Shown piece by piece: positions 42,611 to 52,638 of a stretch of 64,000 nucleotides of DNA; positions within the stretch are counted from its first letter, which is position 1, and each line of letters begins with the position of its first letter. The notes under the pieces are model-generated. The model was given only the letters and a program-made list of their open reading frames with translations. It was not told the DNA's origin and made no database searches. Source of the stretch: Synergistaceae bacterium (lineage in GTDB: Bacteria > Synergistota > Synergistia > Synergistales > Aminobacteriaceae); contig JAFSSM010000022.1 of assembly GCA_017451025.1 (NCBI GenBank), forward strand, positions 5,420 through 69,419. The letters are read 5' to 3'. Position numbers and translations under genes: made by a program.

Positions 42611-42647
42611 CCTGCCTGTTCCGGATGAGCGGGCAGGGCAATTTTTA
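42609..42647 (+). terminator. Hairpin plus T-run (possibly bidirectional terminator)
   Basis: GCCCTGCC-15 nt-GGCAGGGC followed by AATTTTTAT. Confidence 0.5.
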
Positions 42648-43695
42648 TGCCTTGTCGGGACGGAATCGCAGGTATAAGGTGCTGTAGAGCTTGAGGCTGA
42701 ACTTGAAGAGGAGTATCTGCAACTTGCTCTTAAGGTTCATGTGAGGATACATCAGAACACGCAGAGGGACTATTTCGCGGCGAAGTTGAGAGATGTATTC
42801 CATATCGTAAGTGTCTGTTCCGGCTTTAATCATGTGTTTCACGAACGCCAGCTTCCGAAGGCATACCCCCACGAGAATATTATTTCTGAACTCGGCGTTA
42901 TCTCCACATCTGGACATCACGAAGCTGTAACAGTCCTGTATAGCTTCGGCTAAGTCATATGTTCTGCTTGAGAACTTCGTATGAGTTATTGAGCTGCTGT
43001 GCTGGAAGTGATGATAGAAGGGATAGTCAGTGCACAATACTTTACCAGCGTTGCCGACGTACCTGTGCACAGTGTGAATGTCCTCGAAGAGTTTTCCGCG
43101 AGGGTATTCTACCCCGTTAAACAGTTTTTTTCTGATGAACTTATTGCATGAACTTGCCGTGATGTATTTCGAGAAAAGTATAAGGCTCAACGCTTCTTCG
43201 GTGGACATCAACTTTTGTTGGAAGCAAGCTGTAGGAAGGCTATTGCCATTGTCGAGTTCAGCCTTCAACAGAAAGCTCACTATATCCGCTCCCGACTCGC
43301 CAGCCAGGCGGTAACATGTCTCCACAGTCTCGGGGTCAATCCAGTCGTCGCTGTCCACAAATTGAATCCACTCGCCACTGCACTCGCGGATACCTACGTT
43401 CCGAACTTCAGCTAACCCTACATTCTCCTGATGAATTACCCTGATACGCGAATCCTTCTGTGCATATTCATCGCATATCTTCCCGCTCGAGTCTGTAGAA
43501 CCATCATCGATTACCAGTATCTCGAGATTCTTGTACGTCTGGGCAATTACGCTGTCCAAGCAGCGAGCGACATACTCCTCAACGTTATAGACTGGGATGA
43601 TTACTGATACGATAGCACAATTTCGGTCTGGTCTGGTCTGGTCTGGTCGGTCTGGTCTGGTCTGGTCTGGTCAAAACTCTAGCACTGTCATTCAT
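42645..43695 (-). pseudogene. Family-2 glycosyltransferase whose frame is broken inside a 5' (AGACC)n tract (phase-OFF allele or frameshift)
   Basis: ATG at 43695 with GGAGG 9 nt upstream. It reads through the repeat, then stops at 43585. The GT body (VSVIIPVYNVEEYVARCLDSVIAQTYKNLEILVIDDGSTD) is in the +1 frame with no start codon of its own. Confidence 0.7.
43625..43672. repeat. Pentanucleotide tract [(GGTCT)4 GGTC] x2
   Basis: Read directly: ggtct ggtct ggtct ggtct ggtc ggtct ggtct ggtct ggtct ggtc. Confidence 0.95.
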
Positions 43696-43711
43696 AACTG
43701 TCAACCTCCTT

Positions 43712-44716
43712 TTATCGTATATCATGCAATGACGGATCTGGCACTACCTCTTCGTCGCCTACTCGTCCACGACGCATAAACGCATTCCGTCCGGCCATAG
43801 CTATCATTACTGCGTTGTCCGTACACCTGCTCAACTTCGGCAGCCATACACGAATTTTACCGCAGGTGCTCAATGCCTCCCTTAAGGTACTATTAGCCGA
43901 TACACCCCCTGAAGCACTTATTTGACGAATGCCCGTTTTTTTAGATGCAAGCAAAATTTTGTTTAGAAGTGCTTCCACCACACAACGCTGAAACGATGCA
44001 CACAAATCCTCTATAGGCAATTCTTGCCCTGCTTCCTCCAGCTTCTTCACCTGCCACAGCAACGCCGTCTTCAACCCGCTGAAGCTGAACTCTATTTTGT
44101 CCGTGTTCTTCAGCGGCACAGGAAAATCAAACGCCTTAGCATTCCCATTTTTGGCGAGACGGTCAATCTCCGGACCGCCAGGATATTTCAGTCCAAGAAC
44201 CCTTGCCGCCTTGTCGTATGCCTCGCCTGCGGCATCGTCCCGTGTCTCTCCCAAAAGCTCGTACTTCCCGAACGCATCAACACGAATTATCTCCGTGTGC
44301 CCCCCCGAAACTATTAACGACAAGAACGGCGGCTCCAAATCCTCAGCGTCAACTAGCGGTGCGAATAAATGTCCCTCCAAGTGATTCACTCCGATTAACG
44401 GCACTCCCCACACCTGCGACAATGCCCGCGCAGTCTGCACTCCGACAATCAGCGACCCCATCAGGCCAGGCCCCCGCGTTACCGCTATAAGGTCAAGATC
44501 TTGGCCGCGTATTCCGCATTCCCTCAGGGCAGCATCTACAAGCGGCAGAAGATTCTCCAGGTGCTTGCGGGCCGCAAATTCAGGGATTACCCCCCCAAAT
44601 CGAGAGTGATCCTTTATCTGGCTCGACAAATACTCGCACAGAACTTCACGTTCATCCTTCAGAACTGCTACTCCCGTATCGTCGCAGCTCGTCTCTATCC
44701 CCAGCGTAAACATCAC
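43712..44716 (-). CDS. tsaD: tRNA N6-adenosine threonylcarbamoyltransferase TsaD
   Basis: LGIETSCDDTGVAVL...GVNHLEGH...SGGHTE...GGVSAN. Confidence 0.95.
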   Translation of the reverse strand: MMFTLGIETSCDDTGVAVLKDEREVLCEYLSSQIKDHSRFGGVIPEFAARKHLENLLPLVDAALRECGIRGQDLDLIAVTRGPGLMGSLIVGVQTARALSQVWGVPLIGVNHLEGHLFAPLVDAEDLEPPFLSLIVSGGHTEIIRVDAFGKYELLGETRDDAAGEAYDKAARVLGLKYPGGPEIDRLAKNGNAKAFDFPVPLKNTDKIEFSFSGLKTALLWQVKKLEEAGQELPIEDLCASFQRCVVEALLNKILLASKKTGIRQISASGGVSANSTLREALSTCGKIRVWLPKLSRCTDNAVMIAMAGRNAFMRRGRVGDEEVVPDPSLHDIR

Positions 44717-47729: not shown

Positions 47730-48847
47730 ATGAGTATTCGTGGAATCGTCAAGAAAATATTTCCAGAGGAGTACTGGCCGTACCTGCAGATACCCTACAG
47801 AATGTGCTGGGCAGTCAGACGCAAAACGATTAGGGCATTCACTAGCAGGAAAATTATTGCGGAAGCGAAGAAGTACATTCCGTACTATCAGGATGATTTA
47901 TCGCTGGCAATACTGAACGACAGGATAGAGTCTCTCACCAGTCAGGACGAGAATATTTTTATCAGGCGTGCAAAGGCTGAAGGCTGGAAGTTCTCCGAGC
48001 TGTACGGTATTCAGCTCAGCAAATATTCGTGCATAACAATTGTGTGCGGACGCGGCAGGAAAGATGAACAGTACCTGCGCAGTGCACTTGAGCTTCTCGC
48101 CTCGCCGCCGGTGTATAAGTTCATCACACTGAAGGATTTTCTCGGAGGATACAGGCCGGACGATTCGGAACTGCTGGTGTTTTCGGTGAGCGACCTGGAG
48201 TTTATCCGTGCCAGCAAGTACATCGGGCAAAAAGGCATTACCAACGATGTACGGAGGGATTTGCTCGCGATGCGTGAGGAATGCCAGTATGTTGATGTGT
48301 TCAGGCCGGTGCAGGACGAGGTTATTGTCGATGCCGGAGCTTATATAGGAGATACTGCCCTCCGCTTCGTAAATTATACTAGGGGGGGGGGGTACGCAGG
48401 ATATATTCCTTCGAGCCTGACCCCGAAAACGCAGCAAAATATCGCGAGAACCTGAAGGAATTTGCGGACAAAGTTACGCTCATTCAGGCTGGAACTTGGG
48501 ATCACGACGAAACATTGCACATGTCTACCGGCGGAGCAGGAAGCAGGCTTTCAGACGACGGCGGCACTGAAATACAGCTGACCTCGATAGATAAGGCAGT
48601 AGGCAGCGAAAAGGTTACGTTCATCAAGATGGATGTAGAGGGAGCAGAGTTGAGCTCGCTAACCGGTGCGAAAAACACTATCTTGAAAAATCATCCAAGA
48701 CTGGCGATATGCGTATACCATAAAACCGAAGATATTTACACCATTCCGGAATACCTGCTCTCGCTTGTTCCGGAATACAGGTTTTACCTCAGGCACTATT
48801 CCTCCAGTCAAATTGAGACAGTTCTTTACGCAGAAGTCCCGGTATAA
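47730..48847 (+). pseudogene. FkbM-family methyltransferase split by a frameshift at a G11 tract
   Basis: ORF 47730-48455 ends after VDAGAYIGDTALRF...GGG. One added G gives the frame VRRIYSFEPDPENAAKYRENL..., continuous with ORF 48515-48847 (KMDVEGAE). Confidence 0.7.
48382..48392. repeat. G11 homopolymer
   Basis: actaGGGGGGGGGGGtacg, counted directly. Confidence 0.95.
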
Positions 48848-51613: not shown

Positions 51614-51642
51614 TAGACAGAACAGATGAAAATGTGTATAAT
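51614..51642 (+). promoter_or_regulatory. Sigma70-type promoter TAGACA-17 nt-TATAAT
   Basis: TAGACA at 51614-51619, 17-nt spacer, TATAAT at 51637-51642. The predicted start falls inside the heptamer repeat. Confidence 0.5.
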
Positions 51643-51675
51643 CACGCATCACGCATCACGCATCACGCATCACGC
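51641..51675. repeat. Heptanucleotide tract (ATCACGC)5
   Basis: Five perfect tandem copies read directly. The first copy overlaps the -10 hexamer by 2 nt. Confidence 0.95.
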
Positions 51676-51780
51676 CCCTAGTCTGCCCGTAAACCCAGAC
51701 AGATACTTAGATTCTAACATGTCCTGCAGGAAAAATCTTGCGGGACATTTTGTGTATCTGCCTTCTGTGAGGTACGGGTC

Positions 51781-52638
51781 ATGCTGAGACGGGTTAAGAC
51801 TTCCCTCAAGAAATATCTGCTCAACAGATGGGGAATTGAGCACGCAAAATCTTGTGAGGTTATTACTTCGCCGGAGTATTACGATGAACTTCAAAGGCTG
51901 CTGGTTCTCCAAAAAGCAGAGGGCTATGAACTTGTCAGGACAGGCAGAGAACATGACGGCGGATATATCCTGCTGAATGACTTTCAGCCCGGAGGAATAG
52001 CATACTCTTTCGGGATATGCAACGATGTATCGTGGGATAAGGAGATGGCCTCGCGCGGCTATGACGTGTTCATGTACGACCACACAATAGACCGTCTTCC
52101 GGAGGAGAACCCCGGATTTCACTGGTCAAAGCTCGGAATAGCAGACGGCCTGACCCAAGACGATAACCTACGGACTCTCGACGAACTCATCAGGAAAAAT
52201 CACCACGAAAACGAGTCGAACATGATCCTCAAGATGGACGTTGAAGGAGCAGAGTGGGGATGCTTTGATATGGCAAGCTCCGAAACTCTCGCTAAATTTT
52301 CGCAGATAAGCCTGGAATTTCACGAAATCCCCAGTCATTCACGGCCTGAACAGGTGCTAAATGTTTTCAGGAAGCTAAACATGACTCACCAGCTGATTCA
52401 CATTCACGCAAACAACAACGGCAGCTACGTTTCGTTCTGCGGAAAAAAATTCTGCAGTCTGTTCGAGATGTCCTATGTGCTTCGCGGAAAATATGAGTTG
52501 TCGTCCGATTATGACCCTGTCTTGCCGTTAAGCATAGACTCGACGAATATTAGCAGCATCCCCGAAATAGAACTTGGCCGCTGGAATGAACATGCAGATA
52601 TAGGCAGCCGAATAACAGTCCACGCGAAAATATGGTAG
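51781..52638 (+). CDS. FkbM-like methyltransferase-fold protein
   Basis: GIAYSFGICNDVSWD...ILKMDVEGAEWGCF... resembles the FkbM family. Confidence 0.55.
   Translation: MLRRVKTSLKKYLLNRWGIEHAKSCEVITSPEYYDELQRLLVLQKAEGYELVRTGREHDGGYILLNDFQPGGIAYSFGICNDVSWDKEMASRGYDVFMYDHTIDRLPEENPGFHWSKLGIADGLTQDDNLRTLDELIRKNHHENESNMILKMDVEGAEWGCFDMASSETLAKFSQISLEFHEIPSHSRPEQVLNVFRKLNMTHQLIHIHANNNGSYVSFCGKKFCSLFEMSYVLRGKYELSSDYDPVLPLSIDSTNISSIPEIELGRWNEHADIGSRITVHAKIW

Follow-up and report, generated by a model that had tools for sequence, protein, structure and literature searches.

The 64-kb stretch of DNA analysed here (part of contig JAFSSM010000022.1 of a Synergistaceae bacterium, and referred to below as the window) carries on its minus strand, immediately downstream of tsaD, a gene for a GT2-family glycosyltransferase whose upstream start signals are separated from the reading frame of the enzyme by a pentanucleotide repeat. 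The features of this locus are collected in Table 1, in window coordinates. An earlier inspection of the letters alone, which we will call the sequence-only reading, had reported a GGAGG and an ATG right after the tsaD stop, and on the minus strand we find both, with the 9-nucleotide (nt) spacing given there. Between this Shine-Dalgarno (SD) sequence and the ATG lies a TTGACA hexamer, and the ATG is followed by TAGAGT; together the two hexamers match the sigma-70 consensus at 10 of 12 positions. Since the start signals directly follow the tsaD stop, the glycosyltransferase gene is probably co-transcribed with tsaD.

The repeat tract begins 21 nt after the ATG codon, has a unit length that is not a multiple of three, and is free of stops in all three sense frames. 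Tandem Repeats Finder describes it in two ways, as period 5 with 9.8 copies (95% matches) and as period 24 with 2.1 copies (100% matches), and the 15-mer CCAGACCAGACCAGA occurs four times in the window, where 0.00 occurrences are expected from 100 shuffles. Read from the ATG, the tract yields a 36-residue product, MNDSARVLTRPDQTRPTRPDQTRPKLCYRISNHPSL*, which is the OFF read-out; translation and Tandem Repeats Finder agree here with the earlier description of a frame that passes through two blocks of four units plus a 4-nt unit and stops at 43585 after 36 codons.

The enzyme is encoded in the next frame, which is open from 43670, through the tract, to its stop at 42645 and reads PDQTRPDRPDQTRPDRNCAIVSVIIPVYNVEEYV..., as had been proposed. 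Its match to PF00535 (GT2) has an E-value of 9.2e-42 and covers profile positions 1-164 of 168, with profile position 1 at residue 22. No stop interrupts this body back through the repeat, and it lacks a usable start: a TGA closes its frame just upstream of the repeat, no ATG, GTG or TTG occurs before 43559, and a start at that TTG falls 16 positions into the profile, so that the first beta-strand of the fold is lost, again in line with the sequence-only reading. The two frames are offset by 43695 - 43559 = 136 nt, which is 1 mod 3, and the earlier arithmetic is correct in that a change of +5, -10 or +2 nt (the last restoring the two truncated units) joins the ATG to the enzyme. Whole-unit changes, +1 unit or -2 units, therefore suffice, and, because the 24-nt duplication preserves the frame, only changes of 5-nt units would switch the gene. 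Public annotations disagree on the start, NCBI placing it at an ATC and ENA at a TTG, and both miss the upstream ATG and the repeat; the two annotated starts are probably artefacts of the OFF frame.

Table 1 Features of the glycosyltransferase locus and of other repeat-bearing loci in the window
Feature	Position	Strand	Remarks
tsaD	43712..44716	-	334 aa from GTG, 333 aa from ATG; open reading frame and Pfam TsaD (identical gene, ENA contig)
tsaD stop codon, TAA	43712..43714	-	
SD sequence, GGAGG	43705..43709	-	9 nt (ttgacagtt) separate it from the ATG
TTGACA, -35-like hexamer	43699..43704	-	between SD and ATG; invariant cassette part
Cassette start codon, ATG	43693..43695	-	opens 36-codon frame MNDSARVLTRPDQ...
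TAGAGT, -10-like hexamer	43676..43681	-	17 nt past TTGACA, 3 nt ahead of repeat
TGA closing the GT2 frame	43671..43673	-	immediately 5' of repeat; frame reading
Pentanucleotide tract, 48 nt	43625..43672	-	two exact 24-nt copies of (GACCA)4GACC
GT2 glycosyltransferase body	42645..43670	-	341 open codons; DDGSTD and DSDD motifs present
ATC, start in NCBI annotation	43611..43613	-	MVSVIIPVYN, 322 aa; no SD before ATC
TAA ending the ATG frame	43585..43587	-	stop after 36 codons
TTG, first canonical in-frame start (ATG/GTG/TTG)	43557..43559	-	ENA gene calls, 304 aa
Coupled-type cassette	51614..51790	+	TAGACA-17-TATAAT
Coupled leader start, ATG	51626	+	53-aa leader
(ATCACGC)5	51641..51675	+	within coupled leader
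Stops of the other two leader frames	51679 and 51690	+	
Terminator-like hairpin	51719..51748	+	followed by T-run; crossed by leader
ATG of Methyltransf_21-like gene	51781	+	285 aa
Coupled leader stop, TGA	51785..51787	+	overlaps main ATG (ATGCTGA)
FkbM-type methyltransferase (PF05050)	47730..48847	+	split by G11 run into 241- and 110-aa open reading frames
Poly-G tract	48382..48392		G11 in window

A start cassette shared by many genes of the genome

The genome to which the window belongs (G000) is a short-read metagenome-assembled genome (MAG) of 2.35 Mb in 62 contigs, with 51% G+C. A sequence search with the GT2 repeat region matched seven other places in it, and a repeat scan found (GACCA)4-5 at eight tracts. 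Upstream sequence is available for six of seven (GACCA)n loci, and all six share one layout, consisting of an SD-like purine run, TTGACA, a spacer, TAnnnT, 0-3 nt and the repeat, and at four of these six the spacer holds an ATG. The same arrangement extends beyond this unit: about 43 loci of the genome show an SD, TTGACA, a 16-18-nt spacer with ATG or GTG, TAnnnT and then a repeat, the unit being a pentamer (GACCA, GACAA, CCACA, CTCAC or AGAGC), one of many heptamers (up to 14 copies), an octamer (8 copies), a tetramer or (AC)10. An (AGAGC)n copy at C32:38503, which belongs to the GT2 family of the window gene, lacks a start codon in its spacer. At every cassette a near-perfect sigma-70 promoter overlies a small open reading frame (ORF) that begins with SD and ATG.

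To separate the cassette from chance occurrences of promoter-like hexamers, the 95 TTGACA-N16-18-TAnnnT sites of the genome can be divided into the 30 that are followed by a repeat and the 65 that are not. An SD-like sequence precedes TTGACA at 23 of the repeat-linked sites versus 4 of the others (p = 4e-12), and a start codon lies in the spacer at 23 versus 18 (p = 1e-5). Given this enrichment, we rejected as the main explanation the idea that the repeat is a 5' untranslated region behind a TTGACA-17-TAGAGT promoter, with a fortuitous ATG; that idea is further disfavoured by ORFs that have no other start, and by loci, described below, that need translation of a leader. At 25 of 37 cassettes an extended -10 promoter (TGnTAnnnT) is found further upstream, ending mostly 23-34 nt before TTGACA, which would place the SD and ATG within the mRNA. 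A few cassettes immediately follow a terminator-like hairpin and show no other promoter, and two of these are ON by their ATG.

The genes behind the cassettes mostly concern surface glycans or their modification. Among the glycosyltransferases are members of GT2 (8, including the window gene), GT4 (3), GT10 and GT11 (2) and a GT61-like enzyme; the remainder comprise MBOAT (2), ATP-grasp (2) and radical SAM (2) proteins, a PglD-like acetyltransferase, an aminotransferase, a sulfatase/LtaS-like transferase, a lipoprotein, a 969-aa Ig/LRR surface protein and several products without a family, as well as an acyltransferase-3-like ORF recognised from its N-terminal sequence alone, with no Pfam match. 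By frame, 5 cassette loci of the genome are ON and about 13 are OFF. The repeats also leave a mark on the assembly, in that 15 of 124 contig ends lie no more than 60 nt from a simple repeat, where 0.4 would be expected. One (GACCA)n cassette, which precedes an acyltransferase-3-like gene, is broken into a part at the end of C36 and a part at the start of C24.

One could suppose that the repeats are hypermutable for lack of mismatch repair, but we rejected this explanation, as mutS and mutL are both present and intact in the genome. Repeat units of at least 4 nt escape mismatch repair in Haemophilus, and if the same holds here the presence of the two genes is to be expected.

Distribution of the cassette

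We scanned 185,579 species genomes for the pattern TT(GACCA)3.8 and obtained 45 loci, 26 of them in rumen or gut MAGs assigned to Synergistaceae, Synergistales or 'Fretibacterium'. At 25 of these 26 the cassette is present, and the tracts there range from 4 to 15.6 units. When the order is considered, 16 of the 48 genomes of the genus have the pattern, the other genera of the family lack it, and the controls gave 0 hits; the single match elsewhere in the order (G141) belongs to another family and lies in a different sequence context. The (GACCA)n cassette is restricted to this genus. In its 29- and 30-nt forms the ATG always stands 15 or 21 nt before the repeat, and it is kept where adjoining spacer positions vary. 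Other species of the genus also have cassettes with units other than GACCA. The shorter string GGAGSTTGACA was tried as a genus marker and discarded as too short, its background being 1-4 per genome and its enrichment limited to part of the genus.

ON and OFF alleles among homologues

In other genomes, too, long ORFs behind the repeat always extend back through it and lack their own start, 5 being in frame with the cassette ATG (ON) and 13 not (OFF). Some orthologous families include both states, in MAGs that differ in the number of units. An acyltransferase-3 (AT3) family is ON with 7 units and OFF with 5 and 11, the 'NYDFLYDKEYY' family is ON at 21 and 23 nt and OFF at 26 and 78 nt, and a GT2 family is ON at 26 nt and OFF at 27 nt.

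The family of the window glycosyltransferase itself has ON members (P0008, P0011, P0013 and P0017). In its best homologue within the genus (G006, 53% identical), ATG, repeat and enzyme form one frame, MQNRAIIDQTRLDLTRPDQTALHGLISVIIPVYN, and metagenomic homologues begin MASIVDQTRPDQNCALISV... and MPPIIDQTRPDQTRPDQTATHALISV.... These ON proteins carry the same N-terminal DQTRP peptide that the window tract encodes, and the window residues after the repeat, NCAIVSVIIPVYN, match them as well. Across the homologues, the start lies either about 12 aa ahead of the first conserved strand or at the cassette ATG. One metagenomic member of the family (P0024) uses a different pentamer, (AGAGC)n, which encodes an N-terminal (SRAEQ)n.

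The sequence-only reading had named an intact, repeat-free orthologue with a different start as a finding that would tell against it. Such an orthologue exists in a sister species (L067), in a syntenic arrangement of ispDF, a 61-aa ORF, tsaD and the GT2 gene (TsaD 85% and GT2 72% identical), where the GT2 gene starts at GGAAGGAG-N8-ATG directly after tsaD, and neither a repeat nor TTGACA is present. An equivalent in-frame start is missing from the window, so the reading survives this comparison. As the orthologue has a plain SD and ATG at the place where the window has the cassette, the cassette has replaced an ordinary start in the lineage of the window. Between the two genes the nonsynonymous divergence (dN) is 0.20 and the synonymous divergence (dS) is saturated, which points to long-term purifying selection on the GT2 body.

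Repeat variation among near-clonal assemblies

Exact-protein look-ups with the GT2 product and with the 333-aa form of TsaD led to four other ENA assemblies (the 334-aa form gave no match), which are near-clonal with the window, at 0-3 single-nucleotide differences per 10-21 kb. Several repeats differ between assemblies of this set. The (GACCA)n tract before one fucosyltransferase has 5, 6 and 6 copies and the (GACCA)5 tract before the other has 5, 5 and 5; (TTCGCAG)n has 9 and 8, (TTCGGAC)n 8, 8 and 4, and the (ATCACGC)n tract of the window 4, 5, 5, 5 and 7, while the poly-G tract of the window measures 11, 10 and 9 nt. One contig of 20.9 kb differs from the window solely in the (ATCACGC)n and poly-G tracts. 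Since sister repeats differ in copy number between near-clonal assemblies, repeat slippage is active in this organism, including at a GACCA tract.

At the GT2 locus, 201 nt comprising the cassette, the repeat and the 5' end are identical in 5 of 5 assemblies, and the 304-aa product from TTG 43559 is identical in the four ENA assemblies. The comparison of alleles suggested by the sequence-only reading thus shows differing copy numbers at sister loci that share the cassette and, among the five consensus sequences, a single OFF allele at the GT2 tract. It follows that fast switching at this locus is not supported, and that an error of sequencing or assembly in the tract length, which the sequence-only reading had allowed for, is practically excluded: the window does come from a short-read MAG in which contig ends tend to fall in simple repeats, but four of the assemblies derive from other ENA analyses and the 48-nt tract is shorter than a read.

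Leader reading frames that end on the main start

A second way in which the cassette is wired to genes emerges from 12 loci, which we call coupled-type, where each of the three frames reaches a stop downstream of the repeat. In 11 of the 12, exactly one leader frame continues, over 55-170 nt, until its stop overlaps with the main start, as ATGA at nine loci, GTGA at one and TGATG at one. Before it ends, the long leader frame passes through a hairpin, which either pairs with the main SD or resembles an intrinsic terminator. This wiring would make sense only with ribosomes that start at the cassette ATG, and, as the coupled loci need translation from that codon, they support the same start for the GT2 gene, in which the cassette is fused to the enzyme.

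The window holds a further cassette of the coupled type (Table 1), with a 53-aa leader that passes through (ATCACGC)5 and a terminator-like hairpin with T-run and ends on the start of a 285-aa Methyltransf_21-like gene, the other two leader frames stopping soon after the repeat. Judged by this arrangement, the element looks like a repeat-gated attenuator that is ON in the window. Three GT11 fucosyltransferase genes lie behind (GACCA)n cassettes, two in the genome of the window (G000 C7:177130-178218 and G000 C23:3980-5023) and one elsewhere (L035); in each, the fucosyltransferase ATG is overlapped (ATGA) by the TGA that closes one of the three leader frames. In L035 the leader is read in this coupling frame, and in both G000 copies it is not.

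A probable slipped-strand switch in the OFF frame and its alternatives

Taken with the anatomy of the locus and its OFF frame, the cassette family, the ON and OFF alleles of homologues and the repeat polymorphism at sister loci make it likely that the GT2 gene is a slipped-strand (simple-sequence-repeat) translational switch, present here in the OFF frame. Translation would start at the SD and ATG right after tsaD and enter the (GACCA)n tract. With the present 48 nt, the ribosome would leave the tract one base out of register with the enzyme and stop after 36 codons; if one unit were gained in either half, or two were lost, ATG and enzyme would be joined as M-NDSARV-(DQTRP-type peptide)-NCAIVSVIIPVYN..., which is the form of the ON homologues. 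The start region would then be one copy of a genus-specific cassette, and not particular to the GT2 gene. The proposal in the sequence-only reading, that this is an OFF allele of a phase-variable glycosyltransferase, is thus right in kind and partly supported, as anatomy, shared cassettes, ON homologues and varying sister repeats speak for it and no switching has been seen at the GT2 locus.

A number of observations weigh against this interpretation. The 48-nt tract and its flanks are identical and OFF in every one of the five consensus assemblies, which represent near-clonal populations, whereas in the same contigs a heptamer tract 8 kb away and a poly-G tract 4.7 kb away vary. The tract is broken into two runs of four perfect units (4.8-unit halves), and would be expected to slip less than the varying tracts of 5-14 units. 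No ON allele of the exact window locus was found, and a pattern scan of JGI metagenomes for alleles of the locus, allowing tracts of 5-65 nt, gave 0 hits. Nor does the locus have an extended -10 promoter upstream, as most cassettes do. Finally, the cassette hexamers constitute a near-consensus sigma-70 promoter, from which a transcript would begin inside the repeat and carry no ATG.

Given a tract of two 4.8-unit halves that does not differ among five assemblies, switching at the GT2 locus is probably slow, or the OFF state is currently fixed. We infer that translation begins at the cassette ATG and that the locus can still switch; supposing that the gene is indeed a switch, we put the chances that it is live but slow at about even. 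The alternative that comes closest is that of a locked-off gene or early pseudogene, a former switch frozen OFF by a 24-nt duplication that left two short runs. This would account for an invariant OFF allele beside varying repeats, and for runs of only four perfect units, and the tract of the G006 homologue is likewise degraded, by point changes. Yet the body remains free of stops, frameshifts and substitutions over 341 codons, the strains are near-clonal, so that little time has elapsed, 4-5 units is the usual tract length at ON and OFF cassette loci alike, and a (GACCA)5 tract elsewhere does vary. We therefore regard it as unlikely; the caveat of a dead gene attached to the sequence-only reading keeps some force to the extent that the tract is invariant, OFF and interrupted, as a locked-off or dying gene would have it, and loses force with the intact body.

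A slipped-strand switch would lose its point if the enzyme were made constitutively from ATC 43613 or TTG 43559, with the repeat in an inconsequential short upstream ORF. The NCBI annotation (MVSVIIPVYN) and the gene callers respectively favour these two codons, but ATC is a rare initiator and has no SD before it here, and a start at the TTG costs the GT2 profile its first 16 positions and with them the conserved strand about 12 aa ahead of which, or at the cassette ATG, the homologues begin. We consider such a start very unlikely. Even less probable is a recoding event, in which +1 ribosomal frameshifting or transcriptional slippage on the repeat would join the frames with no change in the DNA: repeats can promote slippage and the frames are one base apart, but we see no known slippery motif, stimulatory structure or conserved shift site, the homologues occur in all three registers, their ON alleles need no recoding, and a ratio of about one ON to two OFF fits a random DNA phase and not a conserved recoding site.

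Beyond the single gene, we on balance favour a model in which the start region is a portable, genus-specific 'contingency cassette', made up of an extended -10 element, an SD, TTGACA, a spacer with ATG, a TATAAT-like hexamer and a repeat whose unit is not a multiple of three. Such a cassette would have spread to about 40 unrelated surface-glycan genes per genome and would be wired either as an N-terminal fusion or as a coupled leader acting as a repeat-gated attenuator or by translational coupling, and its embedded promoter would have a function of its own. One could speculate that this sigma-70 promoter acts through a sigma-dependent pause or an open complex over the repeat, thereby promoting slippage.

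Comparison with known systems

For a few pathogens, the phase variation of glycan genes through repeats is a textbook subject. A close parallel is opa of Neisseria, with CTCTT coding repeats in the leader-peptide region: there, too, a pentamer lies just after the start, its frame sets ON or OFF, and one unit recurs at many loci of a genome. The opa genes, however, are paralogues of one outer-membrane protein family, whereas here a portable start cassette is shared by unrelated enzymes (GT2, GT4, GT10, GT11, AT3, MBOAT, ATP-grasp and others), the units may be of 2, 4, 5, 7 or 8 nt, and the hosts are rumen and gut commensals of the phylum Synergistota. The Opa family is defined by a repeat in the signal-peptide region of an outer-membrane adhesin; the GT2 product has no signal peptide, and the locus works like an opa switch and is not a member of the opa family.

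In Haemophilus influenzae, tetranucleotides in the 5' coding region of the lipooligosaccharide genes lic1, lic2A, lgtC, lex2 and oafA similarly switch surface-glycan transferases and acetyltransferases, but these genes have no common cassette with -35-like and -10-like hexamers, and we know of no coupled leader ORF among them. The O-acetyltransferase gene neuO of E. coli K1 has heptanucleotide repeats at its 5' end (PMC13001214) and so resembles many sister loci of the window's genome, where glycan-modifying enzymes likewise have a heptamer tract at the N-terminus; unlike these, it is a single prophage gene and not part of a genome-wide system. The poly-G/C phasomes of Campylobacter and Helicobacter (PhasomeIt, PMC6321876) offer a likeness in scale, with tens of contingency loci per small genome and a predominance of glycan genes, and G000 itself has 59 G/C runs of at least 9, one run in the window varying from G9 to G11. 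Those phasomes, however, are built on homopolymers in the absence of mismatch repair, whereas units of mostly 5-8 nt and mismatch repair genes are found here. Finally, the coupled sister loci recall leader attenuation and translational coupling (trp, pyrBI, erm), in that translation of a leader passes through a hairpin, SD-sequestering or terminator-like, and stops on the main start (ATGA). The input here is the frame set by a hypermutable repeat, not a charged tRNA or a drug, and the likeness concerns the sister loci, the window GT2 gene being a direct fusion.

Our search of the literature on Synergistetes, Synergistota and Fretibacterium found no report of phase variation or simple-repeat switching, and a phasome built from one portable cassette has, as far as could be found, not been described before. 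With some 43 cassette loci and 59 G/C runs in 2.35 Mb, it would be a very large phasome, found here in a rumen or gut commensal and drawing on one reusable start module; for the leader-ORF wiring and for promoter-like hexamers laid over SD and ATG we found no description either. Fucosyltransferases, GT2 and GT4 enzymes, O-acyltransferases, ATP-grasp ligases and a large Ig/LRR surface protein are among the switched genes, and such a set suggests that the cell surface is varied stochastically, presumably against phages, protozoal grazing or host antibody. For annotation, the cassette would supply the true start and the ON or OFF state of genes whose starts gene callers misplace (to ATC or TTG) or which they would call pseudogenes, and for assembly it identifies repeats in which 15 of 124 contig ends fall.

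Homopolymer tracts

The G or C runs of at least 9 in the genome reach a length of 23. The idea that they lie mostly in promoter spacers was rejected, as just 3 of the 59 are located between TTGACA and a -10 hexamer (C19:10511, C35:1561 and C37:30948). One run in the window lies within the gene for an FkbM-type methyltransferase (PF05050), which G11 splits into two ORFs in the window (Table 1). In ERZ27256812, with G9, the gene is a single ORF of 371 aa, and in ERZ28653955 the run is G10; this tract is a homopolymer switch within the gene that varies between samples.

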